Shown: positions 29,065-50,219 of the stretch, piece by piece | Position numbering within the stretch: position 1 is the stretch's first letter | Layout of the letters: each line of letters starts with the position of its first letter | Source of the DNA: Candidatus Latescibacterota bacterium | GTDB lineage: Bacteria > Latescibacterota > UBA2968 > UBA8231 | Direction of reading: 5' to 3' | Assembly: GCA_965261395.1 (NCBI GenBank) | Contig: OZ253462.1 | Span: 4,768,001 to 4,832,000 of the forward strand | Length of the DNA: 64,000 nucleotides | Program-made: the position numbers and the translations under genes | Notes under the pieces: model-generated | Databases searched by the model: none | The model's input: only the letters and a program-made list of their open reading frames with translations | Told to the model about the DNA's origin: nothing

Positions 29065-31101
29065 TCAGACGAACGAGCCTCCGATGGGCTGGTTGCCGAC
29101 CATGCCGGTGAAATAGTCGATGACCAGCCACATCCCCGCGACGAAGATCTGTCCCATGATCAGACCTAGAAAAAACGGTTTGGTGCTATTGTACAGCGCC
29201 GGTCCTCCGTATTTGAGCACCACCGATTTGATCGCCCACGCTATGAATACACTGAACCATACATAGTTCATGATGAAGAAAGTACTGGTGGCGAAACCCA
29301 GAGGATGCACGGGCCACCACACGAAACGCGCCCTGATATAGGCCAGCAGGCCCATCACCAACGCTCCTAAGCCGGTGAACAACCAGCCCCCGATATGAGC
29401 GGAGGTGGGATTGGACAGGATGACGGCCATGTAGTTGGCCGCGTTTCGGGGTACGCCAATGAACCAGAACCCGTGGAGATTGACGCCCCCATAGGTGTAG
29501 GACAGCGTCATGACGCTCCATATAGAACTGGCTAAGGCGATCACCACGGCCAGAGCCACACCCCAGATCAGCATCCTCCTATCCCCTTTGAGCAGTTCGG
29601 CGATTTTCAAGGCGTTGGCAAAACAGGGCATAAAAAAGATGCGGATATTGGCCGCCCATACATAGGTAAAGCCCAGCGCCACGATGCCCGAGGCACCCAG
29701 CGCGCTGGTGCCCAAGCCCGACACGACGAAATCCGCCGGTGTCAGCGGCGTGCGGATGACTGCCACCCCCCCTTCCACCACGGCCCGAGTCAAGGCCATG
29801 AAGACGACGAAGACCGCAAAGAGAAAAACCGGGACGACCCACAGGGGGAGGCCCGACTTCCACAGCCAAGCACTGATGATCAGTAGGCCGACGAGCAGGC
29901 CCCAGACCGCGGTTCGGTAAGACAAGATTTCATCCCTGTCGTCTACCGCCTCATCCCCTTTGAAAGCCTTGCTAAATACACCCTTGAGGTGGCTTCTGCC
30001 CATCCACAGGCCAGACAGTACCAGCACGATCATGGCCCCCATAGCTTGGTGCGCTAAGTAGGGGCCGCTGGAATTGGCAAAGCGGCTCAACTTTTCGGCG
30101 CTCTGGATGCCCAGAATGTTGAAGACGCCCCGCTCGATATTGGATAAAAGGAAAAAAGACCAGAGCCCCAAGGCCACATCTCGGCTGAGCAGATAGGCAA
30201 ATCCGACCAAGCCCAAATTGAACATGACGATGAGCACGGTCGTATTCCTGAAGATGGTAAACTGGCTCGTCAGAATACCTTGGTCGCTGAACTGGCTCAT
30301 GCCCGGGATGAAGGGAAAATAGTTGTACAGAGCGCTGTACGAGCCCAACAGGAAGGGGATGGAAAAGCCTATCCACATGACCGGATTTTTGAAGAAAGGC
30401 TTGATCCAAGAACGCTTTTCGTCATGGCTGCCCCCCCCTCGCTCTTCATCCCGCATCATCTCGAGTGGGACCTGGACTAGCGGATAGAGCAGCTTTTCGT
30501 GTTCAATCCACTGCCGGCGCACCATGACCATCAGGCATATAGATACCCAATAGCTGGCGATAATGAACAGACACCAGTACAGAATGGGCTCGATCCAGAC
30601 GTTCCAAGGCACGGAGAGGCCCTTGGGCAACCCCTCATAGAAATACCTAATGGCGTCGGGATCCTGGGGGGCCATCCACTTGGGCACATAGGGGTGGATG
30701 ATCTCTTCCCATCTGTTTTCGGGCGAAGCATAATAGTAGATTCCGGCGACAATAGGCAGCAAATACTCGGAAAAACCGATAGTCGGGATGGCCGTGGCCA
30801 GCATCGCCATGATATAAATTACGGCCAACTCGGGAGGTGAAAGAGCATACTGCCGTCTGATGAAGCCCAAAACCACATTGACAATGCCGACAAAAATAAA
30901 AAAGACGAAGATCGCAGCCGGTGTATTGAGGTTGTGGGCCAGGAGCGAACCCTTGATGATCATATTGGTGTAGGGCAGGACGATGCCGATAAAAAGGGCC
31001 ATGAGTGAGCCGATTAGCAGAGACCGGAAAGTCACGCCTGGCTCGCCCATCCCGTCGTCATCTGGAAGGGCTGGGTGTCCTGCGCGGATATCTTTTCGCA
31101 T
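29065..31101 (-). CDS. DUF6785-DUF6784 polytopic membrane protein (putative transporter)
   Basis: VTFRSLLIG, ELAVIYIM, YYASPENRW, RRQWIEHEKLLYPLVQVP, WWPVHPLGF, LKYGG, PFFLGLIMG; start taken as MRKDIR. Confidence 0.85.
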   Translation of the reverse strand: MRKDIRAGHPALPDDDGMGEPGVTFRSLLIGSLMALFIGIVLPYTNMIIKGSLLAHNLNTPAAIFVFFIFVGIVNVVLGFIRRQYALSPPELAVIYIMAMLATAIPTIGFSEYLLPIVAGIYYYASPENRWEEIIHPYVPKWMAPQDPDAIRYFYEGLPKGLSVPWNVWIEPILYWCLFIIASYWVSICLMVMVRRQWIEHEKLLYPLVQVPLEMMRDEERGGGSHDEKRSWIKPFFKNPVMWIGFSIPFLLGSYSALYNYFPFIPGMSQFSDQGILTSQFTIFRNTTVLIVMFNLGLVGFAYLLSRDVALGLWSFFLLSNIERGVFNILGIQSAEKLSRFANSSGPYLAHQAMGAMIVLVLSGLWMGRSHLKGVFSKAFKGDEAVDDRDEILSYRTAVWGLLVGLLIISAWLWKSGLPLWVVPVFLFAVFVVFMALTRAVVEGGVAVIRTPLTPADFVVSGLGTSALGASGIVALGFTYVWAANIRIFFMPCFANALKIAELLKGDRRMLIWGVALAVVIALASSIWSVMTLSYTYGGVNLHGFWFIGVPRNAANYMAVILSNPTSAHIGGWLFTGLGALVMGLLAYIRARFVWWPVHPLGFATSTFFIMNYVWFSVFIAWAIKSVVLKYGGPALYNSTKPFFLGLIMGQIFVAGMWLVIDYFTGMVGNQPIGGSFV

Positions 31102-31132
31102 GTCTTTTAGGATATAGATGTTCGTCTTGAAC

Positions 31133-33082
31133 TTACAAGTAGCCCAAGACATTCCCCGTCATACCGGTGAAGTAGTCAATCACCAACCACATGCCCGCCA
31201 CCACTACTTGGCCTAGGATTAATCCGAGAAAAAAGGGCCGAGTCCGGCTGTAGGCGGCTGCTCCCCCGTACTTGAGAACGATTGTTTTGAACAGCCAAGC
31301 CAAAAAGATACTAAACCACACCCAATTCATAATGTAGAATGTGCCGGTGGCGAAGCCCAAGGGATGGATCGGCCACCACACAAAGCGGTAGCGAATATAG
31401 GTGAACAGACTCATCAAGAAGGCTCCCAGGCCAGTGAAGGCCCAGCCCGCTAGGCTGGCGGGTACGGGGCTGTCGAACTTGGGGCCTATATAGGTGAAAG
31501 CCATCTGCGGAACGAAGATGAAGAAGAAATTGTGCAGGTTGATGCCGCCGTGGGCATACGCCATTTCCATAACCAGATAGATAGAGCTGGACAAGGTGAG
31601 GACAATGGCTAGCAATACAGCCCAGAGCAGCTTTCTTTTGCTGCCTTTGATCTCTTCGGCCAGTTTGAGGGCATTGGCGAAGCAGGCCATAAAGAAAATG
31701 CGCACATTGGCGCTCCATACGTAGGTGAAGGCCACGCCGATCAATCCGGAGGCTCCCAAGGCGGTCGTACCTAGGCCGGAGATGGTAAAATCAGCGGGGG
31801 TGATAGGCGTGCGCAGGACGGAAATCCCCCCTTCGACCACAGCCCGAGTAAGCGCTATAAGGACAACGGCAGCCCCGAAGAGAAACACCAAGACGATCCA
31901 CAGCGGGATGCCCGACTTCCACAACCAGCCGATCATCACCGCTAGGCCAGCCACCAAGCCCAGTACGGCGTTGCGGTAGGATAGGACCTCTCCAGAATCG
32001 TCAATATGGGCATCCCCCCGCAACGCCTTGATGAAGACATCGCGCAAATGCCCCCGTCCCATCCACAGCCCAGAGAGCACCAGTACGATCATGGCCCCCA
32101 TGGCTTGGTGGGCCATGTGCGGCCCGACTAGGTTGGCGAAACGGCTCAGGTTTTCCTCACTGTAGATGCCCAGCACATTGAAGACACCTCGCTGCAGAGA
32201 GGATAGCAAAAAGAAAAACCAGAACCCTAGGGCAATATCCCGGCTCAATAGGTAGGCAAAGCCGATCAGCGCTAGGTTCATATCTAGGCGGAGGTACGTA
32301 GTGCCACGGAAGAGGTGAAAGCCGGTCGAGGTGGTGATGCGAGGCACGAATTCGTAGTAGCTATTCAGGGCATTTATAAGGCCGATAAGGAAGGGGATGG
32401 CAAAACCCAGCCACATAGCCGTATTAGAAAAAAAAGGGGCCAGCAGCGTCCGTCTCCCATCACCCTGAATCATCTCTAGGGGAACCTGGGCCAAGGGATA
32501 AAGCAGTTTTTCGCTTTCCATCCACTGTCGGCGCACGATCACCATGGCGCAGATGGATACCCAGTAGAAGGCAAGGATGAACAGGCACCAGTAGGTCAAG
32601 GGCTCGACCCAAGCACCCCAAGGTAGTGGCCGCCCCTCGGGTAGCCCTTCGTAGAAATAGCGAATAGCGTCGGGGTCCTGGGGGACCATCCACTCGGGCA
32701 CATGGGGGTGAATCAAGTCTGCCCAGTTGTTTTCAGGGGTGGCAAAGTAGTAGAGCCCCGTGGTGATGGGCAGAACGTATTCGGTGAAGCCAATCGTGGG
32801 GATGGAAGTGGCTACCATCGCCATGATATAGACCACGGCCAATTCCCCTCTCGACAGGGCCAAGCCCCGGTGGAACAGGTGCAACAGTGGATTGAGGAAA
32901 AGGACGAGGATGAAGAAGATAAAGAGGGCAACAGGAGTGCTGAAGTTGTGCGCTAGTACCGTCCCCTTGATGACCATATTGGAATAAGGTACGGCAACGC
33001 CGATGAAGATCGAGGCAACGCCGCCGATTAGCAGGGCTTTGAAGGTGACACCGCCGCCCGAGTTTTTCCCCTCAGTTGCCAT
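31133..33082 (-). CDS. DUF6785-DUF6784 polytopic membrane protein (putative transporter)
   Basis: Same motif set; tandem paralog. Confidence 0.85.
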   Translation of the reverse strand: MATEGKNSGGGVTFKALLIGGVASIFIGVAVPYSNMVIKGTVLAHNFSTPVALFIFFILVLFLNPLLHLFHRGLALSRGELAVVYIMAMVATSIPTIGFTEYVLPITTGLYYFATPENNWADLIHPHVPEWMVPQDPDAIRYFYEGLPEGRPLPWGAWVEPLTYWCLFILAFYWVSICAMVIVRRQWMESEKLLYPLAQVPLEMIQGDGRRTLLAPFFSNTAMWLGFAIPFLIGLINALNSYYEFVPRITTSTGFHLFRGTTYLRLDMNLALIGFAYLLSRDIALGFWFFFLLSSLQRGVFNVLGIYSEENLSRFANLVGPHMAHQAMGAMIVLVLSGLWMGRGHLRDVFIKALRGDAHIDDSGEVLSYRNAVLGLVAGLAVMIGWLWKSGIPLWIVLVFLFGAAVVLIALTRAVVEGGISVLRTPITPADFTISGLGTTALGASGLIGVAFTYVWSANVRIFFMACFANALKLAEEIKGSKRKLLWAVLLAIVLTLSSSIYLVMEMAYAHGGINLHNFFFIFVPQMAFTYIGPKFDSPVPASLAGWAFTGLGAFLMSLFTYIRYRFVWWPIHPLGFATGTFYIMNWVWFSIFLAWLFKTIVLKYGGAAAYSRTRPFFLGLILGQVVVAGMWLVIDYFTGMTGNVLGYL

Positions 33083-33210: not shown

Positions 33211-34593
33211 TCAGTCGGCGTAGTAATAGCCGTAGAGAATCATCATTTCATCGGCGCGCGTGAACCCGAAGTTGAGATTCCGCTCGGTGTCATTGTCGTA
33301 GGTGGCCCTAATCCTGAAGCCTTGGCCCTCTTCGACCATGAGCGGCGGATCGAATCTAAGAGGAGCCGGGTGTTCCCAGTCGTAGCCGATGTAGATCAGT
33401 TCCCCATCCCGGGGTCCGCCGATGAGTTCGGCGGTGAATTCCTCCATGCGGTCATGGGTGTGGGAAACAAGTTGGAAGATGTGCCTGTCCTCCTTAAAGA
33501 TGAACTCTTTCTCTAGGGAAGTGACTTGGCCAGCGGGCAGATCAATATCGAAGTTGCTCAGGGCGAAGACCTCGGCTACCCGTTCTACTTCCGAGGGTTC
33601 AATAAGATGCAGGTTGACAAATACTTCGCCGATCGCGGCCTGATCGGTGGCATTGGCATAGTGGGAGTTCATATCAAGTCCCGTTCCAGCGGGCAGACGC
33701 ATGGCCACGCCGGGAGGCAAGCTGAAGTCAAGGCGCGTAGATTGGGCGATTACGATGGGAACCTGGTACTGCATGACCCGCCAGTCGAACAGATCGTACC
33801 CTTCGGCGTCTTGGTAATTGCCTGCGGTGTCGCGCAGGTCGCGGTAGATCTCTGGCTGGGGAATAACATCGGTCGGGGTGTAGCCGGGAAACTGGTTGAG
33901 GATGAAGTGGTGACTCCCCGATCGCATGGACAATTCAAAGCGATTGACGAAGAGATCCTCGGCGTGGTCGAGGGGCTGATAAAAATAGACCTCGCGCTCG
34001 TACTGGGGTGCCACCTCGAAGGGACCCAAGTAGAGTTGGATGCCATTGAACGGCGGATTTAGCGGCGTGAACTCCGGTACTGCATAGCGCTCCTCGTCCT
34101 GCAGCAGGGCCAAGTCTGCTACCACCCTTTCTTCGGGGGCTCCGGCGCGGATCCACTGGCGTATGAATTCCAGTTGGCCGTTAGTCAGCGGCGGACGACC
34201 CAGCGGCATCTGCTCGCCATAAGTGGGATGATCAGCGTAAAAGTGCTCTTGGTCGGGCGCGTTGATCTTTTCCCATAGATAGCTCTTGAAAAGACCCCCA
34301 AGTCCCTCGTCGCTCAGCAAGACTAAGCCGTCTTGGGCGGCCGCAGCATTGCGCGGTACAGTATTGATCAGTTGGCTATACGCCAAATCTGGAGTCAGAA
34401 CCAAGTCTGACTGCCGAGCGAAGGAGGCACCGGCACTGTGGCAGCTAACGCAGTTGGAGGCGAAGATATCGTGCTGGATCACGTTCCAAGTCGATACTTC
34501 CTGGGGCTCTACCGAGCGGCCGGAATCGCAGCCGCTCAGAGAACAACTCATAGCGCTGAGCAATGCGCTTAGTACAAAGCCGATTCGCCGCAT
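33211..34593 (-). CDS. Lipoprotein: c-type heme domain fused to a copper type II (PHM/DBM-like) monooxygenase
   Basis: Lipobox LSGC, CVSCH, MPLG, SHHF, NSHY, SHTH, DEMM. Confidence 0.75.
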   Translation of the reverse strand: MRRIGFVLSALLSAMSCSLSGCDSGRSVEPQEVSTWNVIQHDIFASNCVSCHSAGASFARQSDLVLTPDLAYSQLINTVPRNAAAAQDGLVLLSDEGLGGLFKSYLWEKINAPDQEHFYADHPTYGEQMPLGRPPLTNGQLEFIRQWIRAGAPEERVVADLALLQDEERYAVPEFTPLNPPFNGIQLYLGPFEVAPQYEREVYFYQPLDHAEDLFVNRFELSMRSGSHHFILNQFPGYTPTDVIPQPEIYRDLRDTAGNYQDAEGYDLFDWRVMQYQVPIVIAQSTRLDFSLPPGVAMRLPAGTGLDMNSHYANATDQAAIGEVFVNLHLIEPSEVERVAEVFALSNFDIDLPAGQVTSLEKEFIFKEDRHIFQLVSHTHDRMEEFTAELIGGPRDGELIYIGYDWEHPAPLRFDPPLMVEEGQGFRIRATYDNDTERNLNFGFTRADEMMILYGYYYAD

Positions 34594-35010
34594 AGCTATC
34601 CTCCACAAGTGCGGGGATAATAAGATGATAGGCCAATGCCACAGACGTGCGAGAAAATCACTAGCCTACGTCTGTTAACCTATTATATTCCAGATACCAC
34701 CATTTTGGGAGATTGTCAAGTTTTACTGCGTGGCCAAGATCTCTGGGTGCCGATTTGCCGCAACTTTTTAGTTAGCCCAAGCGAGGTCTTTGTTATCCGT
34801 GAGCAGATAGAGCGAGCAATTTTGATTGATATACTCGTTGATTTCTTGTAGTATTTTCTCTTCTGCATGGATAATCGCTATTTTGTTTTCGAATATTCAA
34901 CTTTTCACAATCTGGGCCGAATTGCGGATCTTTTGAAGATGCCATTCGTCGCTCTGCAATGGCTCCTGTGATTTTCGCCCTTCCACAATAGCGAGATCAA
35001 TGCCCACCCT

Positions 35011-36897
35011 ATGGCTGACTTATCTCGTTTGTTGATCTGGAGCCTCTCCTTGTGGACTGGTTTCGCGGCCGGACCGGCCTCCGGGTTGGTTATCTACCGA
35101 TTGGGCGGCGAAGCATTGGCCCCGCCTCCAGAAGCAGGCCATGAAGGCGTGGAATTCATCCAACTAAACTGGACGGATTTCAATCCTCCCCTAGGCGGGG
35201 CCGCCATTGATTTGGATATAGACACCGCCGCTATCCGGCCTCTCAAACGCGATCCGAATTTCAATATAGCCCCCGGCATTGAAGCAAATGGAGGGGAGCA
35301 CGTCAGGCCCAATGTGAATGTGGAAGTATGGGATGGAGATGTCAGTACGGCTTGGGTGGCGGCCAGTTATCTGTGCGGCGCACTCAGCAGGTTTTTCTGC
35401 GTAGATGATTTTGGCCGACAGGGCACGGCTAATATCAACCTAGGCAATCCCTATCTTATTGACCGGGTGCGGATTATATCCGGCCTGACCGATCCGAGCA
35501 AAATAGTGCGGACGGTCCGCATTTACATCGCGCCGGAGTTGCCTTGGAAAAAAAGAACTCTCATTGATCATCCCCCGCCGTATTCACCCTGGGTCGTCGA
35601 GGTGCGGGACAATCGAGAGCAGATCATCGACATTCCCCTCCCCCCACAAGAGGGAACGACCTTTGTGCAGGTAGCCGCCAGCGAGCACGGCGAGGACTGG
35701 GAAGTAAACGAGATAGAAATCTACGCCAAAGGGCTAGTCAAAAAGGCCAGCTACATCTCGAACATTCTCGATTTTGGTCAGCCGATGGCCTGGGGCGACC
35801 TGCGCTGGTCCGGACGCCAAGACCCCAAAGCCCGCATCCTCATCCAATCCCGATCCGGACAAGACCAAGACCCCGACCTGTTCTGGCGCTTCACCGGACG
35901 AGGCGACGAAAAAATACCCGTCAGCCGTTCCGAATACGCCGACTTGGCCGTAGGCGAAAAAGCCGGCACCGGCTACGATCAAGCCAACTGGACCTTCTGG
36001 TCGGCCCCCTACGCCTTTGCCGACAGCAGTGGCACCCCCATCGTGTCGCTAAGCCCACGACGCTATCTCCAACTCAAAGTCGACTTTCTGCCTCAAGACG
36101 ACGACGGCGGACAGGTGGACTTTCTCGAAGTGCGCGCTTCCCCGCCGGTGGCCACGCAGTTGATCGGCGAGGTCTGGCCCGTCGAGGTCGCTGTGGGCCA
36201 GCCGCAGCAGTTTACCTATGTGGTGCGACCAACCTTGGGGGGTGACAGTGGAGGCTTTGACCGGTTGGAGGTGGCTACAGCGGCACGGCTGGGGACCGTA
36301 ACCCAAGTGCGCATGGGCGATGAGCCGGTCGACTATGCGGTGGAGGTGGCTGAACTGCACCGGGTGGTGGTGAGTTTCCCCCGGCTGACAGCTCAGGATT
36401 CGGGTGCTTTGGTGGAGGTAGTCTTCGAGGCGGAGGTATTGCGCTATGGCTCTACTTTTTCGGTGCGGGTGTGGGACAGTGCCCAGCCGTTGGAGGTGCC
36501 CCAGAGCGTGCAGGAGGGTGATGCCAGTCCAGCCTATGAGGGCAATCGGGTGTGGGTAGCCACCAAGGCGGAGCATCAGGGGGTGTTGCAGGTGGGTCGG
36601 CAGCCAGTGGTCTTGACGCCCAATGGGGATGGGCGCAACGACGCGGTGGGGTTGGGATATCGTTTGGTAGAGTTGACGGGTCGGTCCTGGGTGACGGTGG
36701 CGGTGTGGGATTTGTCGGGTCGCCGGGTTCGTCAGGTGTATGCGGGGTTGGATGGTGTGGGTGCGTATGAGCGGGTGTGGGATGGTCGGGACGAGTCGGG
36801 TCGGCTGGTGTCGCCGGGCCTTTACCTCTACCGCGTCTCCGTCGAAGCCGACCACCAAACCGTCTCGGCCGTAAAACCACTACAGGTCGCCTATTAA
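35011..36897 (+). CDS. Exported protein with discoidin-like segment and C-terminal FlgD-Ig/CHU_C-like domain
   Basis: Signal peptide; WSAPY, RYLQLKVDF, LTPNGDGRND, WDGRDESGRLVSPGLYLYRV. Confidence 0.8.
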   Translation: MADLSRLLIWSLSLWTGFAAGPASGLVIYRLGGEALAPPPEAGHEGVEFIQLNWTDFNPPLGGAAIDLDIDTAAIRPLKRDPNFNIAPGIEANGGEHVRPNVNVEVWDGDVSTAWVAASYLCGALSRFFCVDDFGRQGTANINLGNPYLIDRVRIISGLTDPSKIVRTVRIYIAPELPWKKRTLIDHPPPYSPWVVEVRDNREQIIDIPLPPQEGTTFVQVAASEHGEDWEVNEIEIYAKGLVKKASYISNILDFGQPMAWGDLRWSGRQDPKARILIQSRSGQDQDPDLFWRFTGRGDEKIPVSRSEYADLAVGEKAGTGYDQANWTFWSAPYAFADSSGTPIVSLSPRRYLQLKVDFLPQDDDGGQVDFLEVRASPPVATQLIGEVWPVEVAVGQPQQFTYVVRPTLGGDSGGFDRLEVATAARLGTVTQVRMGDEPVDYAVEVAELHRVVVSFPRLTAQDSGALVEVVFEAEVLRYGSTFSVRVWDSAQPLEVPQSVQEGDASPAYEGNRVWVATKAEHQGVLQVGRQPVVLTPNGDGRNDAVGLGYRLVELTGRSWVTVAVWDLSGRRVRQVYAGLDGVGAYERVWDGRDESGRLVSPGLYLYRVSVEADHQTVSAVKPLQVAY

Positions 36898-36938
36898 CAA
36901 GGCGTTTTGTACGAATCTAATTAGAGATTGGTTCTCCC

Positions 36939-39142
36939 ATGCAAGCGGACTTTAGTTCGAATTTACGCTCATATCTGATTATAGGGGTCTTGCTCTCCGT
37001 CTACGGGTCTGTGGGTACAGGAGCCACCAAGGAGTTGATCATTCTCGGCGGCGAGGAAGGCCGACCTTGGCAAGAAGGAGGAGGAGGATTAGATCCGGTG
37101 ATCATCTTAGGGCCCCAGGAGGTGACAAACGAAAACGTACCTGGGGGGGTTATCGACTTTTCTGCGCGGGAGGGATGGATTTTTCCCGAAAAGGCCGACC
37201 AAACTGACAACATCGCCTTACAACTGCGAGACCGAGGTGGATCTGTAACCGCGCCCACTGTTCTCACAGATCTAGCGGCAGACCTGTTAAAAATGATAGA
37301 CAATAATGCCAGCTCGGCCTTTGAAAGGAAAAGCGCTCCTGGTCGGAATGTCCGGGCGCTGGGCGTGGTCCTCCAGTTCGACCTAGGAGCGCGATTTGGT
37401 GTGAGTCGCATCCGCTTCTTCCCCAGGAACGCCGCTCCAGATTTTCTCGCTCCAGATTTTCCCTTTCAAGACGATTATATGAGGGCCTATGAGATTTTTC
37501 TCAACGACGGCACGCGAGAAACACTAGCCGCCGGCCTGCCGGTATTCACCAGCGTTCTGCTCGTACTGCAGAACGACCAACCGGTAGTAGATGTGCAGAT
37601 AGAGCCCCAGTACGTGCGCTATCTCCAGCTAAAATCCCAGACCACAGTGGGCTTTGAAATAGGAGAGTTCCAAGTCTTCGGAGAGGGTTTCGTGCCCACG
37701 GCGGAGTATCATTCGGATATATTCGATCTGGGAGAAAATTTGGCCCTTTGGGGAAATCTGCGCTGGGAGGAGGAGAGCCAAGGCGACCCGATCCGCTCCC
37801 AAGTGCCCATCAGCACTAGGAGCGGCTTTGATGATTCTCCAGTCGTGTTCAATCGCCTCCGCAGCGACCTCGACGGGGCCGAAGTGGCTTGGAAGACGGC
37901 CGATGAATTCGACGAAGGCAGCCAAGCGTGGGAAATCGTCAGTCAACTCGACGCGCCCGATTTCGATATAAAGCAGGCTCGGCAGTTCTACAAAGATTTG
38001 CCCCTCGATAGGAGGAATGAGATATCGCTGACCCAATCCGACTACAATAAACTGAGGTCGGGCAACAAGGGCTCGGTGCGGGACGACTTGGAAAACTGGA
38101 GCGCTTGGTCGCCGCCCTATGCGGCTACGGGTATAACTAGCGCCGATGAAGTATCCGCAGGGATGGGCGGAGTGCCCATCGTTTCGCCCGGTCCAGGGCG
38201 TTACTTTCAGTTCAAAGTGGATTATTTGAGTGAAGATCTCTTTTCGGCCAAAGGCATCGGTTCACTGTCCCTCGATTTTTCCAGGCCGGTACTGGCCGCA
38301 GAGATCGTGGGAGAGATCACCCCACGCCAAGCGGATCTGGGGCAAAAAACAGCTTTTTCCTTGGCACTCATTCCGATATGCGGCCCGAAATCGATCAGGG
38401 CTTCAGTTCCCTCGAAATCAGCACACCCGTAAAAGTGGACGCAGTAGATCGGATTGGCATGTCGCTACCGGATGGATCCCGCCTCGAACAAGATTTCTCG
38501 GATTCGGACCTGAGCGACCTGCCGGTGGAACGCGGGGATTTCCGCATTGATTTGGTCGAGGAAGATCGCTTCCAGATTAGTTTCCCCAAAGTAGAGAATA
38601 GTCGCATAGAAGTGGGACAGATGACCGTCTTGGAAGTGGTTTTCCAATGCGTAGTGCTGCGGACTGGAACCGCCTTTTCCCCCCTAGCCCTGTCCGAAAC
38701 CCCCGGCGAAGTTCCACAACGGGTAGTGGGAGGCAATGTCTTTTACTTGAGCCAAGAAAGTTCCAATGCCACTCTCATTCGCGACCCGGGAAATCTGGTG
38801 GTGCAAGTGGCGAAAAAAGGGGACTTGCTGATCAACGTCAACGCCGTACCAGCAGTCTTTACGCCCAATGGGGATCAGATCAACGATATTGCGCAGATAC
38901 ATTTTGATATCACCGATCTCATCAGCGGGGCCGGCGTAGCGCTGCGGATATACGACTTGTCTGGTGGCATGGTGCGGGAAGTCTATCGCGGAATCGACCA
39001 GAGTGGTCGCTTCACCAAGACGTGGGACGGTACCGATGGCCGAGGTAACACCGTGCCGCCTGGCCTCTACATTTTCAACATTGATTTGGACACCGACGGC
39101 GGCAAGGCCGAGGCGAGCGGCCTCATAGGCGTGGCCTATTGA
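36939..39142 (+). pseudogene. Second FlgD/CHU_C-tailed exported protein, split by a 1-nt frameshift near 38373 (ORFs 36939-38432 and 38378-39142)
   Basis: The two ORFs are colinear with the N- and C-halves of the upstream paralog; adding one base at ATT CC_ GAT gives about 734 aa. Confidence 0.75.
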
Positions 39143-42071: not shown

Positions 42072-44849
42072 ATGCTAAAAAGGTACGGCTCGTGGTATGT
42101 TGTGGGGATACTCTGCGTACTAGCTTTATCGTCCGCTACTGGCTGGGCTGCGCAAAACTATGGGGCTCTCTTAGGGCACCAAGCCAATGACGGCACAGTG
42201 GTGTATCGCTCTGAGGGTCCCAAGACCCTGCTGGGCAACGTGGAGCCATCGGTGCGGAAACGGTATCTGCCCCAAGAGCTGTATCAGGAGTACCAGTGGC
42301 AGACTTGGCAGTACACTAACTACGCTGGCAATCCCTATCAGAGATATGTGGCGCAAAGCCTCTGGGGCGATTATTTCTACGATGTGTACGGAAATTTCCT
42401 GACCAGAGGATGGTTGGTCTACGACTGGACCGAGGATCACCCGCGAATCTCCGAGGGCAGTCGTCTGCTGAAAAGAGGAGCATATTCCGGTTTCTTTAGC
42501 TCATTGATTGTAGCCTCCGACCAGAAAGGTCAATATTCCTTTTCCATTTCCGTTGGCGACGAACTGGTCACGACCCTGACGCCAATGACCTTTCGCAAGT
42601 CTGTGTACAACGGTGCCCAAGTCGATCTCATGTCGGACGCGGTCGAGCTGACTGGTATCTTTTCCCGCATCAGCGCACCGGGCTTCATCACCGATCCGAA
42701 TCCGGCCTCTTTCAACAACTACACCAACCTGATAGGGGGCCGGACTAGGGTCCGACTAGGTGATGCCATTACCTTGGGAGGGGTCTTCGTCAATTCCCAC
42801 AACGGCCGGGGGACCGTGCAGAGCTTTGAGGGCAATCCCTTCAAAGGGGAATTAACCTCGCTGCAGTTACAAAACCAGATCAGTACTATTGTCATCCGGC
42901 TGAGCGACGACTCACCGGCCGATGATATCGGGGGGAGCGTCCTACTAGCGGATAATGTAGAAATAGCGACGACTATCGGAGACAGAGACACCGTGCTAGT
43001 CGGCAATGAGATCGGCTTCACACCCCATAGGCAGGGAGGCACCATCATAGAAGGCGTGCGCACGGCCAACGGTACGGAACAGATCACCTTGCGTTACGAC
43101 TTAAACGACCTAGCCGTGATTCTCGACGACAAGGATGCCATCAACAACATCCGGGATCTCCGCTTCAGACTGGTCCTAGTCAACGACTATCGGATCGAGA
43201 TCACTTCCGATCAGCAGACCAACTTTGAAGGACAACCGGTCTTTCTGCTGATGGCCCAGGCCGAAGGCAATATTCAGGACGGATCGAATAAGCGCGAAGT
43301 GGTCTTCAACTACGGCTTGCCCACTGCTAACCAGCTATTGGGCTTCACGATCGAGGCCCGAGATTTCCTAGGATTTGACTTTTACACCGAGTTCGATGTG
43401 AACCACCAGTACAGAAAATACCCCAACCGCCGGGTGCAGACGCACAGGGCTTACTCGGGACTCGTCGGCGACGAAAACGCCAAAGCCTGGATGATGAATC
43501 TGTCCAAATCGGTCTTCTCTTGGTCCCTCTTTGTCGAGGGCTTCTACATGGATGAGGCCTACAATACCAGTCCCTTCATATCGGATGGTAGCGGCCGCGT
43601 AGATTACGAAGACGGAACCAGGAGCATCTACGACTTCGTCGACGACAACGACGATCAGGACAAGAAACCCGACCAAAAGCGGCGCTACCAAGATCCTAGG
43701 ACTGGCGAGGAATTCCGCGCCGATAGAACCGGAAGATCCGCCGAAGGTTTCGCCGACGAGGCGGTGTTCCCCGGCTGGGATCAGAACAACGATTTCATCT
43801 CCGACTTCAACCAAAACAGCAACATCTTCAGTGATAACCGCTTCCCGGACTACGAGGAACCCTTCCTGCGCTATGGTTCAGACCGACCTGAATACCTCTT
43901 CGGTATCGATCTCAACAACAACGGCTGGGTCGATCAGTTCGAAAACGACAACCTGCCCGATTATCCTTACAAGAGGGATCGCAAGGGCTACAACCTGTAC
44001 CTGCGCAATCAGGTAACTCCGCACTTGCAACTCACCGCCGGGCAGGCCCGCGAACAGCTCCTTTCAGACGACCGCCAAAATCTGACCACCTACGCCCTAG
44101 TGAGCTTTGAACAGGAGTACGCCCGGATCGGACGGGTGAGCATCTTCGACATGCTCAAAAAGGCGGCAGACGATATTCAGGACGACCTCTTTCAATGGGT
44201 ACAAGTTCCAGGTCTGCCCGGATCGCACCAAGCAATAGACGACCCCCTCTTCGCCCAAGATACCTATATCAATACCTTTTGGCTGGGTTTGGACCGTCGG
44301 ACAAATATCGGGGTCAATTTTTCCAATAAATTCAAGTACGAGACCGTGAGACAGCGGGAGAAAGGTAACAATCTAGGTTTTAAGGACGATACGCGTTTCC
44401 TCGGGATCATCAATAAGGCCGACTATCTGTACCAGTACAAAACTCTGACGATGCGACCGAAGATCAAGAGCGAATTTCTCAAGGACAATACTCCCTATTC
44501 TATGGGAGGTGTGCGCCCTGTGCGAGATCAATGGACTGGTTTGTTCTTCTTGACCCTCAAATTCCCCGTTCTGCGGCGAACGACCATAGAGACGGGTATA
44601 GAACAACTCTTTTTCAGGGATTCGGTGGTTGATGAGGACGATTTAGCAGCGGGTGAATTCACCGAGGATTTCAACAGCACGGTCTTGGCTATGCAACTTT
44701 CGAACAGGGGGGAGTACCTAGGCTATGTGCTCACGGCCCAACTCGGCTACAGTATCCGTAGAATCAGTCAAGAGCGAGTCGAAAGAGATGACCGGTCACA
44801 GATAGATAGTACCGTGTTTATGACGATGTACGCCAGCCTGAAAGATTGA
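42072..44849 (+). CDS. Paralog of the preceding putative outer-membrane protein
   Basis: Shares PQELY, TTLTPMTF, NLIGGR, LSDDSP, YGLPTA, FPGWDxNNDFxSDFNQN, RPExLFGIDLNNN, LKFPVLR. Confidence 0.7.
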   Translation: MLKRYGSWYVVGILCVLALSSATGWAAQNYGALLGHQANDGTVVYRSEGPKTLLGNVEPSVRKRYLPQELYQEYQWQTWQYTNYAGNPYQRYVAQSLWGDYFYDVYGNFLTRGWLVYDWTEDHPRISEGSRLLKRGAYSGFFSSLIVASDQKGQYSFSISVGDELVTTLTPMTFRKSVYNGAQVDLMSDAVELTGIFSRISAPGFITDPNPASFNNYTNLIGGRTRVRLGDAITLGGVFVNSHNGRGTVQSFEGNPFKGELTSLQLQNQISTIVIRLSDDSPADDIGGSVLLADNVEIATTIGDRDTVLVGNEIGFTPHRQGGTIIEGVRTANGTEQITLRYDLNDLAVILDDKDAINNIRDLRFRLVLVNDYRIEITSDQQTNFEGQPVFLLMAQAEGNIQDGSNKREVVFNYGLPTANQLLGFTIEARDFLGFDFYTEFDVNHQYRKYPNRRVQTHRAYSGLVGDENAKAWMMNLSKSVFSWSLFVEGFYMDEAYNTSPFISDGSGRVDYEDGTRSIYDFVDDNDDQDKKPDQKRRYQDPRTGEEFRADRTGRSAEGFADEAVFPGWDQNNDFISDFNQNSNIFSDNRFPDYEEPFLRYGSDRPEYLFGIDLNNNGWVDQFENDNLPDYPYKRDRKGYNLYLRNQVTPHLQLTAGQAREQLLSDDRQNLTTYALVSFEQEYARIGRVSIFDMLKKAADDIQDDLFQWVQVPGLPGSHQAIDDPLFAQDTYINTFWLGLDRRTNIGVNFSNKFKYETVRQREKGNNLGFKDDTRFLGIINKADYLYQYKTLTMRPKIKSEFLKDNTPYSMGGVRPVRDQWTGLFFLTLKFPVLRRTTIETGIEQLFFRDSVVDEDDLAAGEFTEDFNSTVLAMQLSNRGEYLGYVLTAQLGYSIRRISQERVERDDRSQIDSTVFMTMYASLKD

Positions 44850-44900
44850 TACCGGGCGGCAGATTCTACTCCCGATTCCATAAAGAAGGAAGCACCAATT

Positions 44901-46190
44901 ATGCGAAGTACCGTCTCTGCACCAGATCTGGGATTGGTGGAGTCTCTCTTTGCAGAAATTGAAAAAATTCCGTGTATCAACTCCCACTCCCACATGGGGC
45001 CGGAAGCCGAGCGCCTAGCGCAGCAGATAGACGCTCTCGCCTTTTTCAACCACGCCTATCCGGCTGCCGACTTGGTGGTGGCCGGCCTCTCTCCCGAGAA
45101 TAAAGAGGCCCTTTTCGACGCTCGACGCCCGCTGGACCAGCGGTGGTGTCTGTTCGAGCCGTACTGGAACCGGATCCGCCTGACCGGGTACTCCCAGTGC
45201 ATCTTGACCGGCTGCCGCGATCTGCTCGGCTTCGACGATCTGACAGCCGCCACAGTTGGACCACTCTCTGAGGCCATCCAAGCACATAGCAAACCGGGCT
45301 TCTACAAAACGGTGCTGCAGCAGCGAGCCAATCTCGCAAGGTCAGTGGTCAATATGGAAGATCTGATTGAGGTGGACCGGACCTTATTCCTGCCCCTGCC
45401 CCGCCTCAACCGCTTCAGCATGCTCCGCACGGCTGAGCAAATCCACGCGATAGAGCGCGACTACGATGTGTCCATCGGCGATCTGCGCCAGCACGTCGCA
45501 GTCATTCGACAGGTGTGCCAAGACTGGAAGGAAGCCCGGGTGGCCGGGGTCAAGATGTCGCAATCCTACCACCGCCGCATGGACTTCAAAGAACGGGACG
45601 CCGGCCAAGCCGCTGTTATTTTCGACCGTCTGTTGCAAGACGACTACGCTGGGCTTGATTCGGCAGAAGGTGCACTGCTGGAGGACTACCTAGTCTTCGA
45701 ATGCTGCCAGGCCGCTGCGGAAGCTGACCTGACCGTCCAGTTCCACCTAGGCATGCGGGCGGGCAACAATGGGGGTATGGAAGGGTGCAGTCCAGTGCCG
45801 CTCATCCCCTTGCTGCAGGCCTTCCCCCAAGTCCGCTTTGACCTCTCCCACGCCGGCTTCCCCTATCTGCGCGAGGGCGCCGTGTTGGGCAAGACCTTTG
45901 CCAATGTCTATCTGAACATGTCTTGGATCCACATCATCTCCCCCTTCGGGTCTCGGCTAGATCTGCGAGAGTGGCTCCAGATGGTGCCCTACAACAAAAT
46001 TATCGCCTTTGGGGATGACTTACAGCAGGTCGAGACGGTCTACGGGCACTTGCAGATGGCACGCCGGAATTTCGCCTATGCGCTGGGAGCTCTGCTGGAA
46101 GAGGGCTTGCTGTCCGAGTCGATGGCTCTCGACGTGGCCCAAGCGACCTTTCGCGACAATCCGGCGATGGTCTACGGAGTCAATGCCTGA
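44901..46190 (+). CDS. Amidohydrolase family protein (uronate isomerase-like barrel)
   Basis: INSHSH, VQFHLG, LSHAGFPY, KIIAFGDD. Confidence 0.82.
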   Translation: MRSTVSAPDLGLVESLFAEIEKIPCINSHSHMGPEAERLAQQIDALAFFNHAYPAADLVVAGLSPENKEALFDARRPLDQRWCLFEPYWNRIRLTGYSQCILTGCRDLLGFDDLTAATVGPLSEAIQAHSKPGFYKTVLQQRANLARSVVNMEDLIEVDRTLFLPLPRLNRFSMLRTAEQIHAIERDYDVSIGDLRQHVAVIRQVCQDWKEARVAGVKMSQSYHRRMDFKERDAGQAAVIFDRLLQDDYAGLDSAEGALLEDYLVFECCQAAAEADLTVQFHLGMRAGNNGGMEGCSPVPLIPLLQAFPQVRFDLSHAGFPYLREGAVLGKTFANVYLNMSWIHIISPFGSRLDLREWLQMVPYNKIIAFGDDLQQVETVYGHLQMARRNFAYALGALLEEGLLSESMALDVAQATFRDNPAMVYGVNA

Positions 46191-48146
46191 TTACCAGTCA
46201 TGCACATTGTGGCCCTGCAAGGGAAACCAGATTACATCCACTACTCCCGAGAGCACGACGCCGATTACATAGCCCACGCCCAAGCCGTAAAAAAAGGGCT
46301 TGCCCTTGCGGTACGCTCTGACTCCGCCGTAGCGCAGCAGTAGCAATTTAGCTATCCAGACCAAAAACAGGCTGAACCAATAGATGGATGTGCCCGAGGT
46401 ATGCTGAAAGGCCAGCCCAATGGGATGGAGCGAGAACCAGTGAAAGCGGGCCCGTAACAGCGCTAGGCCTCCCGACTGCAACAAGCCCCAGCCCCAGACG
46501 CCCCACTTCCCCGGATCCCCAACTCTGGGATTTTGCAGCAGATGCACTGTTTCGTCTAAGAGGCCGGTCGCACCCATCAGAAAAACGCCCCCCCCTTTGT
46601 CATAGGCCATCTCGAGGCTGGCCCATACCGCGGTTAGAAAACCCACTGCAAAGGCGACTAGCACCGTAGCGGTCACCAGCCACGGCTGATCCCGTAGCGA
46701 GAAAATGCGCAGATGGTGTGGGATGGCGGGCCAAGCCGGCAGACGGATATTGCCGAAAAAAGCATGACCGGTGAACATCTTGAAGGCGACTAGGTCCTGC
46801 GGTGACAGGCGGGCCGAGCCCACCAAATCGACGATGAAAGAACTCCCCTTGGCATTGGGCCAACTGGGCATGAGGTAGGGAAAGCCCGTGGCCGCAATGA
46901 GTTTGATGGTGACGAAAAAGGTCGATACCATCAGGACAAAGGCACCGGTGGCCAGCGGTAAACTCGCCCCCAGACTGCAAGCCCAAGCGATGACATAGAG
47001 GGCCGACAGGATCAGACCGACCAAGGCCAAGCGATAGATCCCGACTTGGCGCCGGTCCCCCTCCCCGGTGCGTACCTGTCGCCACACTTCTCGCAAGTGC
47101 CGGCGGGCTAAGTACACAGACCAGCAGGCCACAAAGACGATGGCCCCCAAGCTTTCCAGCGAGAGGATCGCCTGCGGTGCCAAAGGCTGCCCCTCTGCAC
47201 CTATGACTAGTCCCACCCGATCCATCAGCCCTATTTTGACCGTAGCCAGCAGAGCGAAGACGACTAGGCTGCCCAGGATATCCAGCGGACATAGATAGGT
47301 CAAAGCCATAACCAAAGGCAGAACGCGGATGGTCAGACCCGGGAAAGGTTGGGGCAATTCGAGGTGGAAGCGTTTGGTATAGAGTTCAAACAGCGGCAAA
47401 CCCGGCGTGAAGTATGCGCCGATATTGTAGAGTAGGGGCAATAAGACAACCCCGCAGCCGATCCAGAACAGACCCGAGCAGAACAGGTCGGGCACCCGTC
47501 GCGGCCCGTCGAAGCCCCGCGTCAGATCAAGGGGCATCTGCGCCAGCGGGAAAGAGAGTTTTTCGGCTTCCATCCACTGGCGCTGGAATAGTACCACCAA
47601 GCAAAAGCCGAATACCACCATGCCCAGCGAGGCCCCCATCCACTGGATAATTGCCCCGACCCAGCCATCCCACGGCACCGCCGCCCCCTGAGGTAGCCCC
47701 ATCCAGAAGGTATCTAGCACCCGAGGCGAGGAGTCGGGAAAGACGCCCCAGGGCAAATAGGGAAAGAGCAGGTCCGACCACTGGTTTTCAGGTGTGGCCA
47801 TGTAGAAGGGCGCTCCGAGAATGGCGATCCAGTAGTCGCTCCAGCCCCACTGCGGCAAAGCACCCACCACCCAGAGCATGGTGAAAATAGTCAGCAGTTC
47901 GCCCCGGTCTAGGGCCAGCCGGGGCCACATGCGCCCGCAGGCGGCGTTGAGGAAAAGCCACAGCACGAAGGGCATAAAGACCACCATGGGGAACTGCGAG
48001 CGGACATAGCTCCCCGACCCCGATGCTTGTCCGACCTCGAGGATGAGGTAGTAGAATACAGCGACAATGGTCAGCCCCCCTAGAATCAGGGCACGCAAGG
48101 TAATCCGAGGGGGCTTGGAGTCGTCTAATGAACGGATGTTACGCAC
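46191..48146 (-). CDS. DUF6785-DUF6784 membrane protein (more divergent paralog)
   Basis: ITLRALILG, ATPENQW, RQWMEAEKLSFPLAQMP, LHPIGL, LRYGG, KPFFYGL. Confidence 0.82.
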   Translation of the reverse strand: MRNIRSLDDSKPPRITLRALILGGLTIVAVFYYLILEVGQASGSGSYVRSQFPMVVFMPFVLWLFLNAACGRMWPRLALDRGELLTIFTMLWVVGALPQWGWSDYWIAILGAPFYMATPENQWSDLLFPYLPWGVFPDSSPRVLDTFWMGLPQGAAVPWDGWVGAIIQWMGASLGMVVFGFCLVVLFQRQWMEAEKLSFPLAQMPLDLTRGFDGPRRVPDLFCSGLFWIGCGVVLLPLLYNIGAYFTPGLPLFELYTKRFHLELPQPFPGLTIRVLPLVMALTYLCPLDILGSLVVFALLATVKIGLMDRVGLVIGAEGQPLAPQAILSLESLGAIVFVACWSVYLARRHLREVWRQVRTGEGDRRQVGIYRLALVGLILSALYVIAWACSLGASLPLATGAFVLMVSTFFVTIKLIAATGFPYLMPSWPNAKGSSFIVDLVGSARLSPQDLVAFKMFTGHAFFGNIRLPAWPAIPHHLRIFSLRDQPWLVTATVLVAFAVGFLTAVWASLEMAYDKGGGVFLMGATGLLDETVHLLQNPRVGDPGKWGVWGWGLLQSGGLALLRARFHWFSLHPIGLAFQHTSGTSIYWFSLFLVWIAKLLLLRYGGVRAYRKGKPFFYGLGVGYVIGVVLSGVVDVIWFPLQGHNVHDW

Positions 48147-48188
48147 CTTCCCATTTTCTGTTAGTCTCGCGCCTTCGAAGCATCCTGC

Positions 48189-50219
48189 TCAAAAATACCC
48201 CAACACATTCCCGGTCTTTCCGGTGCAGGCGTCAATGACCAGCCACAAACCGGCCACTACAACTTGGCCCAAAATTAAACCGAGAAAAAACGGCCGCGTC
48301 TTCACGTACCCCGCGGAGCCGCCGTACTTGAGTATGGCGATCTTCAGCACCCAAGCGGTGAAGATACTGAACCACACCCAGTTCATAATGTTGAACGTAC
48401 CTGTGGCAAAGCCCAACGGATGGATCGGCCACCACACAAAGTGGTAGCGGATATAAGTCAACAGGCCCATGAGTACCGCGCCCAAAGCCGTGAAGCCCCA
48501 ACCAGATATGCTAGCCGGGACCGGATCGACGAATTTAGGAGCGATAAAATTGAATGCATTGCGCGGCACTCCCACGAACCAGAACTCGTGGAGGTTGATC
48601 CCACCGTACTTATAGGACAGGGTCATAACGGACCACACCGAGCTGAGCAAAGTGACGGCTATAGCCAAGAAAACCGCCCACAGCAGGCCTCTTTTACTGC
48701 CGCGAATCTCCTCGGCCAGCTTCAGCGCATTGGCAAAACAGGGCATGAAGAAGATGCGTATATTGGCGCTCCACACATAGGTGAAGGCCAGCCCGGTCAG
48801 ACCGGAGGCACCCAACGCGCTGGTGCCCACTCCAGAAATCACAAAATCGGCCGGGGTCAAGGGCGTGCGAATCACGGAAATTCCGCCTTCCGCTACCGCT
48901 CTGGTGATGGCGATAAAGATCGCGGTCATTCCGAATAGAAAGACCGGGACAACCCACAGCGGAACCCCGGACTGCCACAACCAAGTCCCCATCACCCCCA
49001 GCCCCACGAGCAGGCCCCAGACCGCCGTGCGATAGGAGATAATTTCGTCGCTATCGTCGATGGACGGGTCGTGGTTGAATACCTTGCGATAGACGGCTTG
49101 CAGATGCCGGCGCGCCATCCACACGCTGGACAAGACTAGCACGATCATGGCACCCATGGCTTGGTGAGCCAGATAGGGGCCAACCGAATTGGCGAACCGG
49201 CTCAAGGTCTCCGTGCTTTGTATACCCAAGACATTGAAGACTCCCCGTTGCACAGTCGACAGCAGGAAGAAGAACCAGAATCCCAGAGCTACATCGCGGC
49301 TGAGCAGATAGGCGAAACCGATCAGGCCTAGGTTCAGGTCGAGACGCAGGTAGGTGCTGCCTCTGAACAGACGCATCTCGGAATCGGTGTCGATGTGCGG
49401 CAGAAAAGGAAAATAGCCGCTGAGCGCGTTCGCCGTACCTATGAGGAAAGGCACGGCGAACCCGACCCACATGGCCCGGTTCCTAAAGTAAGGTTTGACG
49501 AGCGAGCGCCGCTCGTTAGGGCCGCCCCCCTCGCGCTCTTCATCCTGAATCATCTCTAACGGGACTTGGACTAAGGGATAGGGCAGCTTTTCGTATTCTG
49601 CCCATTGTTTGCGCAGAATGGTCATCATACATATAGACACCCAGTAGAATGAGAAGATGAACAGGCACCAGTAGAAGAGCGGCTCGATCCAAGCATCCCA
49701 AGGCAGAGCCATGCCTTGGGGCAAGCCCTCGTAAAAATAAGTGATGGCCTCCATATCTTGCGGGGCGATCCACCTAGGCACATGTGGGTGGATCAATTCA
49801 TGCCACTTATTTTCGGGGGTGGCGTAGTAGTAAAGCCCTGCGATGACAGGCAGCAGATTTTCGGTGAAACCAATGGTGGGGATGGAGGTGGCTAGCATCG
49901 CCATGATGTAAACCACCGCCAACTCGGAACGGCTCAGGGCAAATCTAGGGCTTGGCAGGGCCAAGGCTGTGTTTATTAGGAAAGCGAATACGAAGAATAC
50001 AAAAAGGGCGGCCGGTGTGCTGAAATTGTGGGCCATGACCGTGCCCTTGATGATCATATTGGTATAAGGCACAGCCGCGCCGATGAACAGCGACAAAAAG
50101 GCACCAATTGACACGGCCCGAAAGGTAATACCTGATGTCTGTTCCTCGGGCTGGGCCGCGCCGCGCCGGGTCTTTAGGTGGCGCTGGAAGATTGGAGGGA
50201 TCTCTTTTTTTATATTCAA
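48189..50219 (-). CDS. DUF6785-DUF6784 membrane protein
   Basis: Close paralog of 31133-33082 (AHNFSTP, YLRLDLNL, WSANIRIFF); start uncertain. Confidence 0.85.
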   Translation of the reverse strand: MNIKKEIPPIFQRHLKTRRGAAQPEEQTSGITFRAVSIGAFLSLFIGAAVPYTNMIIKGTVMAHNFSTPAALFVFFVFAFLINTALALPSPRFALSRSELAVVYIMAMLATSIPTIGFTENLLPVIAGLYYYATPENKWHELIHPHVPRWIAPQDMEAITYFYEGLPQGMALPWDAWIEPLFYWCLFIFSFYWVSICMMTILRKQWAEYEKLPYPLVQVPLEMIQDEEREGGGPNERRSLVKPYFRNRAMWVGFAVPFLIGTANALSGYFPFLPHIDTDSEMRLFRGSTYLRLDLNLGLIGFAYLLSRDVALGFWFFFLLSTVQRGVFNVLGIQSTETLSRFANSVGPYLAHQAMGAMIVLVLSSVWMARRHLQAVYRKVFNHDPSIDDSDEIISYRTAVWGLLVGLGVMGTWLWQSGVPLWVVPVFLFGMTAIFIAITRAVAEGGISVIRTPLTPADFVISGVGTSALGASGLTGLAFTYVWSANIRIFFMPCFANALKLAEEIRGSKRGLLWAVFLAIAVTLLSSVWSVMTLSYKYGGINLHEFWFVGVPRNAFNFIAPKFVDPVPASISGWGFTALGAVLMGLLTYIRYHFVWWPIHPLGFATGTFNIMNWVWFSIFTAWVLKIAILKYGGSAGYVKTRPFFLGLILGQVVVAGLWLVIDACTGKTGNVLGYF

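Follow-up and report, generated by a model that had tools for sequence, protein, structure and literature searches.

The window is a stretch of 64,000 nucleotides from an uncultured Latescibacterota-like bacterium, of a lineage known from sponge metagenomes. The locus studied here carries the following genes and features, given with coordinates and strand.

29065–31152, minus: D1, DUF6785+DUF6784 inner-membrane protein, 695 aa (Pfam E 2e-135 and 6e-30)
31133–33082, minus: D2, DUF6785+DUF6784 protein, 649 aa, predicted OPT/Yellow-Stripe transporter fold
33211–34608, minus: lipoprotein-like exported protein, 465 aa, with a CxxCH motif
35011–36897, plus: F1, exported protein, 628 aa; family core conserved, FlgD-Ig/CHU_C tail at the C-terminus
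36939–39142, plus: F2, member of a second F subfamily, ~734 aa (CHU_C 39.5 bits, above the Pfam cut-off)
39202–41982, plus: B1, 926 aa, barrel family member of the B1 clade, assigned by homology to B2
42072–44849, plus: B2, 925 aa, predicted outer-membrane beta-barrel of at least 22 strands
42150–42503, plus: N-terminal segment of B2 (model residues 1–118), candidate luminal plug
43551–43979, plus: Asp-rich insertion of B2 (model residues 468–610) with DDNDD/DxNxD repeats
44901–46190, plus: amidohydrolase-fold enzyme, predicted cytoplasmic, 429 aa (PF04909, E 4e-8)
46191–48146, minus: D3, divergent DUF6785+DUF6784 protein, 651 aa (Pfam E 4e-78)
48189–50219, minus: D4, DUF6785+DUF6784 protein, 676 aa (Pfam E 1e-136)

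Sequence and Pfam searches placed all genes where the first-pass annotation had put them and, as it had stated, no SusC/D, TonB or ABC gene was matched among the 11 locus ORFs in Pfam or NCBIfam. The D pairs do flank the operon on both sides, with the correction that both lie on the strand opposite to it. The view that every component is doubled is too broad: the amidohydrolase is single, and F1 and F2 are 26–29% identical. This doubling overlies a genome-wide expansion, with 46 B, 57 D and 149 F matches above 100 bits in the genome carrying the locus (G000; other G numbers denote the relatives compared); one D gene lies in two pieces and is counted twice among the 57. This Latescibacterota gene set has been multiplied to dozens of copies, of which the locus is one. 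The gene for the 465-aa lipoprotein-like protein, absent from the earlier annotation, has 2 copies in the genome and is kept at 3/3 same-genus loci; its product matches PF03712 (copper-monooxygenase C-terminal) at E 0.002, below cut-off. The amidohydrolase is weakly similar to glucuronate isomerase (NF002794, E 1e-5, far below cut-off), and its gene comes after B2 at 3 of the 10 relative loci. A promoter scan gave 4 sites against 9.2 expected and a terminator scan 25 against 17.2.

B carries a signal peptide. The AF2 model of B2 (pTM 0.79) shows antiparallel strands whose turns are short at one end of the barrel and whose loops are long at the opposite end, with a closing strand at the C-terminus. 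It places 22 strands at residues 129–896, and in the fold search the best 50 matches were all membrane barrels. Since the fold comparisons covered the Foldseek pdb_via set alone, a relative of B may have been missed. B is thus predicted from the model to be a large outer-membrane beta-barrel, and B1, 42% identical to B2 over the full length, would be one by homology; the possibility that the 925-aa proteins are not barrels, on which the earlier reading could have fallen, is not what the model indicates. The N-terminal segment of B2 is aromatic-rich and conserved (invariant residues N57, G73, Y77, D78, G81 and G87) and lies outside the 22 assigned strands, with pLDDT block means of 31–75, most below 55. 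It is a candidate luminal plug in the model, and the N-terminus may add 1–2 further strands, which would exceed the 22 of a TonB-dependent transporter. Two large insertions are found on the long-loop side. The Asp-rich one is a 143-residue loop between strands with near-invariant Asp/Asn columns and repeats that we take to be of a Ca-binding type; judged from its sequence, it is likely Ca-binding and extracellular.

No sequence match to B1 or B2 was found in Pfam, NCBIfam or PDB-HMM. The PF07715 plug and PF00593 barrel profiles matched neither B1 and B2 nor 25 divergent members, and PF00593 matches 20 other places in the genome. The nearest named Atlas cluster, the TBDR-like DUF6029 (score 0.89), is a lead only. 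Searching 1.84 billion representatives with B returned 1,245 clusters at E<=0.001, of which 436 reach E<=1e-30; among 10 divergent clusters, the 3 with a taxon name all belong to Latescibacterota or Handelsmanbacteria. B1 and B2 form two clades of 8 with mirrored trees, and their order is always B1 then B2. Of the hetero-pairing proposed earlier, the B1/B2 part is upheld at the level of the genes; the D pairs do not bear it out.

The tail of F1 matches FlgD_ig (30.7 bits, above cut-off) and, below cut-off, CHU_C (23.2 bits); it contains a TPNGDGxND motif and ends in Tyr. F1 is likely a T9SS type-B-like surface protein on these sequence features, although it stays below the TIGR04131 cut-off, as does F2 (26.9 bits, cut-off 35). 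Among the 149 F paralogues of the genome, 145 end in Tyr and 89 carry the type-B-like tail motif, against 0 of 76 other tailed proteins. Weak F5/8-type sugar-binding matches were seen in 2 F paralogues. In the window, F2 is split into two ORFs. An extra base after 38372 was present at full depth in 4/4 runs and likewise in 2/2 aligned relatives, which identifies the split as a one-base assembly error and rules out a genuine frameshift; F2 is a single ORF of 737–751 aa in most relatives. F2 is always directly upstream of B1 and forms its own upstream-of-B1 clade in the tree. More generally, 45 of the 46 B genes of this genome lie within 3 kb of an F gene, and F subfamilies track B subfamilies.

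A check for T9SS core genes, proposed in the first-pass annotation, found SprA and PorU above NCBIfam cut-offs and a PorV-family gene adjoining porU; GldM and GldN profile searches were blank, and their controls were equally silent. SprA is present in 151/151 genomes, including all 60 without B, and one relative (G004) has 106 FlgD-tail matches and no B, showing that B is not a general part of the type IX system. A PorP search of the genome gave no match at E<=0.1, and protein-level scans gave weak matches on a separate small barrel of 286–351 aa. In 4/4 cases seen, this PorV/PorP-like barrel comes immediately after F in the core operon, and so provides another candidate for the shuttle role.

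The model of D2 follows the Yellow Stripe 1 fold along the whole chain. The D proteins are accordingly predicted to be OPT/YSL-fold transporters, D1 by its homology to D2 (62% identical), and the comparison of DUF6785 with OPT and other carriers suggested earlier thus returned the OPT fold. PF03169 had no sequence match in D1–D4 in Pfam and a PDB-HMM search with D gave no match, so that the fold search alone decided the assignment; hhalign of D against PF03169 gave a probability of 6.4% and E 0.006, collinear over 511 columns, with E 0.33 for the reversed control. D1, D2 and D4 are 62–69% identical to one another (D4 64–69% to D1/D2), form a clade with support 100 and share no more than 50.5% identity with any of the 51 remaining full-length D paralogues. 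D3 is ~28% identical to them and sits on a long branch in a different clade.

The B, F and D families co-localise in other genomes, a point on whose failure the earlier reading would have been abandoned. In this genome, 19 of 57 D genes lie within 10 kb of B (7.3 expected) and 34 within 20 kb (12.3 expected; p 0.001), while D is not enriched within 3 kb and none of six other expanded families shows enrichment around B; in G003, a relative from another class, the count is 7/19 against 2.0 expected (p 0.026). Members of the D1/D2/D4 clade (at least 62% identical) occur within 26 kb of the F2-B1-B2 triad at 8 of the 10 relative loci; 2 of these come from another class. Order and strand vary across loci, and in G002 and G009 the clade shares the strand of the triad. 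The partnership of D with B is not an obligate one: their distributions across genomes differ. Near D, PhyH dioxygenases (19/79, 9.1 expected) and small amidohydrolases (6/20, 2.2 expected) are enriched. Near B, the enriched genes are those for PPIases, GT-C/TPR proteins and lipoproteins, and catabolic families are not enriched in this genome; the analogy with PULs drawn earlier is therefore weak on enzymes.

A likely energy source, missed in the first-pass annotation, is encoded elsewhere in the genome: B is linked with an ExbB-ExbD motor and a TonB-like DUF4159 arm. The arm protein combines a DUF4159 head and a basic/Pro linker with a single transmembrane helix (His in 9/11 aligned rows), and directly follows ExbB-ExbD or ExbB-ExbD-ExbD in three operons (at 5503220 in G000, in G006 and in G012). 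Its profile scored E<=2.6e-32 in 91/91 genomes with B and no better than 5.8e-23 in 60/60 genomes without B, 56 of them of G000's own class. In G003, it adjoins 8 of 10 B clusters. By its transmembrane His, linker and exbB-exbD neighbour, the protein resembles TonB/TolA-like force transducers. TonB_C is absent from it in Pfam and DUF4159 stands in its place, which rules out a plain TonB.

We propose, at a probability of about 0.5, that the locus works as a Ton-like two-membrane importer made of F, B1/B2, the DUF4159 arm, the motor and D. The type IX system would export F to the cell surface, where it would rest on the predicted B1/B2 barrels as a substrate-binding lid; the TonB-like arm, driven by ExbB-ExbD, would open the barrel, and D, with its predicted OPT fold, would bring the product into the cytoplasm, to the neighbouring enzymes. 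The cargo would likely be scarce organic molecules, taken up at the expense of a proton motor encoded elsewhere; our best guess is dissolved organic matter of a glycoconjugate or peptide-like kind. We observe the gene content, copy numbers, linkage and co-duplication, and the co-occurrence and gene order of B with motor and arm; models predict the barrel and OPT folds. From these we infer the surface export of F, the F-B and arm-B contacts, a B1/B2 heterodimer, the plug and the direction of transport. The non-Sus utilisation locus suggested earlier is thus partly supported, by co-localisation, barrel and OPT fold, but not by enzymes or D pairing.

The same pairing of F with B could instead serve powered surface display or assembly, in which B docks glycosylated T9SS-exported F adhesins and ExbB-ExbD-ExbD, the DUF4159 arm and a giant TPR protein drive release, spreading or movement, as in Agl-Glt/Nfs-type machines, with D as a side partner. 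The tight F-B linkage, the type-B-like tails and the gene classes enriched near B all fit this reading, as do the AgmX/PglI C-terminal domain of one f10 lipoprotein, the triad adjoining sprA in genus g10 (2 genomes) and three single B genes of f10 that adjoin other tailed proteins; in Bacteroidota, type-B cargo binds cognate barrels, according to PMC9143113 and PMC12618676. We nevertheless regard it as rather unlikely. In G003, F accompanies only 1 of the 10 clusters into which 15 B genes fall (a search across its class returned this genome alone), B has a length of ~900 aa, at least 22 strands and no PorP/SprF match, and a specific OPT-fold clade accompanying the triad across classes would be left unexplained. 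The earlier alternative of B as a PorP-like export or anchor partner is disfavoured in its simple shuttle form, for which the small barrel behind F is available; what survives of it is this display or anchor role.

That B and F form an envelope module while the DUF6785 permeases and enzymes are independent uptake units gathered in the same variable regions appears improbable. It would account for the opposite strand of the D pairs, their distance from B at the 3-kb scale, the differing distributions, some D clades whose neighbours are instead a peptidase-FtsX giant and another OPT-like gene, and RNA contigs that span D genes only as short pieces; it does not account for D enrichment at 10–20 kb in two distant genomes, absent from the six other families, or for the same D clade near the same triad despite altered order and strand. 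Least probable is a structural coat, with B as an abundant SlpA/OmpM-like barrel that forms with F on top a protein surface layer rather than a transporter: the SlpA/OmpM matches are weak and of a generic barrel type, and a coat needs neither 46 diverged paralogues nor a motor arm beside B (G003) nor a linked permease.

If the importer reading is true, energised import across the outer membrane would have a second, independently assembled solution; its barrel family and its force-transducer head would both be new, and DUF6785 would gain a first role. Much of the unannotated genome would be explained, as B, F and D make up ~250 of ~5,100 called genes, and paralogue-to-enzyme links suggest substrates. 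More speculatively, and with the odds against it, Latescibacterota may own a Sus/Ton counterpart built from unrelated parts (heterodimeric giant barrels, T9SS-delivered lectin-like lids, a DUF4159-headed transducer and OPT-fold permeases) that is the main dissolved-organic-matter route in sponge and marine bacteria; the copy load would then reach up to ~50 barrels and 150 lids per genome. If display is true, type IX surface display would have a powered branch outside Bacteroidota that is new.

No published description of the gene set, of DUF6785 or of DUF4159 with TonB was found in the literature, including that on Latescibacterota envelope, transport and type IX secretion, covered with few subscription papers and main texts only. 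The Agl-Glt/Nfs machinery of Myxococcus combines one ExbB-like and two ExbD-like genes with TPR proteins and outer-membrane barrels, all shared with the set described here, as is the AgmX/PglI-type domain in one lipoprotein; here the partner proteins are T9SS-tailed and OPT-fold permeases are linked. D resembles OPT/YSL transporters (PF03169; barley Yellow Stripe 1, PDB 7wsr/7wst) in its predicted fold at 10% identity, but has 57 matches in one genome. With T9SS type-B cargo and PorP/SprF, as described in PMC9143113 and PMC12618676, the locus shares the CHU_C-like tail on F, a cargo gene directly upstream of the barrel, paired subfamilies and SprA/PorU/PorV in the genome. In contrast, B (~925 aa) is three times the size of PorP (~300 aa), is unrelated to it by HMM (no match to PF11751/TIGR03519) and occurs without F in G003, and a separate PorV/PorP-like gene lies in the core operon. 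The vWA-headed motor-driven transducers of PMC12204202 share the transmembrane His, a linker, a non-TonB head and a TPR-tolQ-tolR-tolR type order; the head is DUF4159 here, the main text of that paper mentions neither DUF4159 nor Latescibacter, and the passages considered here name no partner barrel.

Ton/TBDT systems and SusC/SusD PULs share with the locus a large barrel with an N-terminal segment, a partner surface protein, a permease and many paralogous loci, and Ton systems also an ExbB/ExbD motor with a His-bearing single-pass arm. Unlike a TBDT, B has no plug or barrel match, and the arm ends in DUF4159 instead of TonB_C. Compared with a SusC/SusD PUL, a degradative enzyme, the amidohydrolase, is present at the locus, but enzymes are enriched genome-wide near D and not clustered at the barrel genes; there is no SusD, F has a T9SS-type tail in place of a lipoprotein anchor, the permease is predicted to be OPT-fold, and B1/B2 are a fixed unlike pair.

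The series F1-F2-B1-B2-amidohydrolase lies on the plus strand, flanked on both sides by minus-strand pairs of DUF6785+DUF6784 inner-membrane proteins (D1-D4); F1 and F2 are exported FlgD/CHU_C-tailed paralogs, B1 and B2 are predicted outer-membrane barrels of ~925 aa, and F, B and D alone denote the genome-wide families. All eleven ORFs were found where the first-pass annotation had placed them, with an additional lipoprotein-like gene on the left side of the locus. F2 is a split reading frame in the window sequence. Since one more base follows 38372 in all four runs examined and in both aligned relatives, the natural F2 is unbroken. Named homologues come from Latescibacterota and, in the case of F1, also bear the label Gemmatimonadota. 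RNA runs with a readable label derive from sponge metagenomes, and the stretch is present in six RNA runs out of three studies. In the two runs examined, a single contig covers 36831-46605 and three overlapping contigs cover 35869-45835, respectively; these contigs show that the stretch occurs in RNA libraries and do not demonstrate one continuous transcript.

Left of the locus, a catabolic cluster (16425-29038) encodes three PhyH dioxygenases, a sulfatase, a DUF3604 protein, a PfkB kinase, a 2-hydroxyacid dehydrogenase and a 458-aa protein with no Pfam match (21284-22660), homologues of which occur near the F2-B1-B2 triad in 7/11 relative stretches. The cluster is a possible substrate clue. 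Further left, the IMS match of a 301-aa DNA polymerase IV-like ORF (8170-9075) begins at profile position 74, so that its N-terminus may be truncated or mis-called. A defence-like island of lower GC occupies 50789-60124 on the minus strand:

within 50789-60124, minus strand, SNF2 helicase (1272 aa)
within 50789-60124, minus strand, sacsin/HATPase gene, broken by a UPF0236 transposase-like ORF
53225-54670, plus strand, the UPF0236 transposase-like ORF inside the sacsin/HATPase gene
within 50789-60124, minus strand, MazG-like gene

The genome of the window, G000 (6.55 Mb), contains 46 B, 57 D and 149 F matches, and 45 of the 46 B genes have an F within 3 kb (6.7 expected). In a quick IQ-TREE search, B1 and B2 formed two clades of eight members each with mirrored branching, the order always being B1 then B2. 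The F genes that immediately precede B1 group in a single clade that branches in the same way (seven rows, the split F2 of the window omitted). Together, these results indicate that F2-B1-B2 is the unit of duplication. The mirrored sequence trees support a putative unlike pair of barrels; copying alone would also give shared trees. The hetero-pairing proposed by the first-pass annotation is borne out at gene level for B1/B2 but not for the D pairs, which are no ancient hetero-pairs: D1, D2 and D4 belong to a single recent clade, with D3 falling outside it. Its expectation of co-localisation in other genomes held, the triad order being kept in 10/11 relative stretches, another class included; the 11th stopped short of the triad. 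Most relatives' loci also carry a long-type F, the small exported protein H with its TWGxxK tail, a SurA-like PPIase and GT-C/TPR genes, which makes the copy in the window a reduced version.

A [TS]WGx[IVL]K-type C-terminal motif, which looks like a further sorting signal, ends 45 G000 proteins, 27 of them in the H family; 23 of the 45 lie within 10 kb of a B gene. Many F genes of G000 are arrayed without a B, frequently as pairs of a long-type and a short-type F (e.g. C1:3570696-3586680), and for 53/149 the nearest B is over 10 kb away. In genus g10 (G071 and G084; stretches L024-L027) the triad lies no further than ~6-10 kb from sprA, which is not so in G000.

The most divergent B loci form an operon, F - small PorV/PorP-like barrel - B(-B) - giant TPR - ExbB - ExbD - ExbD, found in G000, G003 (another class), G006 and G012. 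In G006 and G012 it runs on into a TonB-built protein with a DUF4159 head (the arm), and in G000 an arm gene directly follows exbB-exbD at 5503220. Among 151 genomes of the phylum, strong arm-profile matches occur in exactly the 91 that bear B, the 60 B-less genomes having weak DUF4159 matches or none; these kin are not independent (14 families). Most B-less genomes (56/60) fall in G000's own class, and positives come from classes further away. All 151 encode SprA, so neither arm nor barrel is a general component of the T9SS. In the barrel clusters of G003 the arm gene is adjacent in 8/10 and F in 1/10. Family f10 has single B genes at 5/7 loci viewed, with no F core or arm nearby; other tailed proteins adjoin three of these five. 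The lipoprotein ending the f10 core operon (L096:16533-17729) has an AgmX/PglI (TonB_C-like) C-terminal domain, and its G000 counterparts are mostly only ~255 aa.

D is not an obligate partner of B, since D occurs in 60 genomes that lack B and B in 11 that lack D, and the 3 kb around B show no enrichment of D. Enrichment does appear at 10-20 kb, clearly in G000 and more weakly in G003 (contig C2 only, two D on C1 omitted; 5 kb not significant); it is not shared by six other expanded families of enzymes. In 8/10 relative loci, the D clade of this locus occurs no more than 26 kb from the orthologous triad, despite changes of order and strand; this is not an unbiased rate, because several of these loci were chosen after D coordinates had been noted nearby. 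Enzyme genes cluster with D, not with B. An FG-GAP/ASPIC-UnbV (CRTAC1-like) family of 53 G000 members is enriched near both B (21/53) and D (16/53). Some D genes stand beside a giant M28-peptidase-like/FtsX protein and a second OPT-like family (G000:C1:5283585-5297610 = L052:585-14610; G000:C1:5207158-5213532), and one is fused to such a giant in a 2124-aa ORF.

We favour energised import, at a probability of roughly 0.5, as the simplest reading because it accounts for the barrel, the per-barrel motor arm of G003 and the travelling D clade with its predicted oligopeptide-transporter (OPT) fold. In lineages where F has expanded, F proteins would be delivered by the T9SS and serve as binding lids. 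Powered surface display, for which the close pairing of F with B and the presence of chaperones and glycosyltransferases nearby speak, is a serious rival if a somewhat unlikely one. That B/F and D are separate systems which merely adjoin appears improbable, and a structural coat more improbable still.

The accessible text of PMC9143113 and PMC12618676 describes type-B cargo with cognate PorP shuttles, and that of PMC12204202 non-TonB force transducers next to TPR-tolQ-tolR-tolR; DUF4159 is absent from the main text of the latter, as far as accessible, as are TonB, FlgD and secretion from that of the sponge Latescibacterota genome paper (PMC12993501). A search covering the main texts of largely open-access journals found no paper on DUF6785 or on DUF4159 with TonB. 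The locus adds a tested link between barrel cassette and OPT-fold permease, a barrel-arm profile and F-less barrel loci. By sequence, B does not qualify as a TBDT, SusC/D or PorP protein, and the likeness to Ton/Sus systems that we propose would lie in the mode of working.
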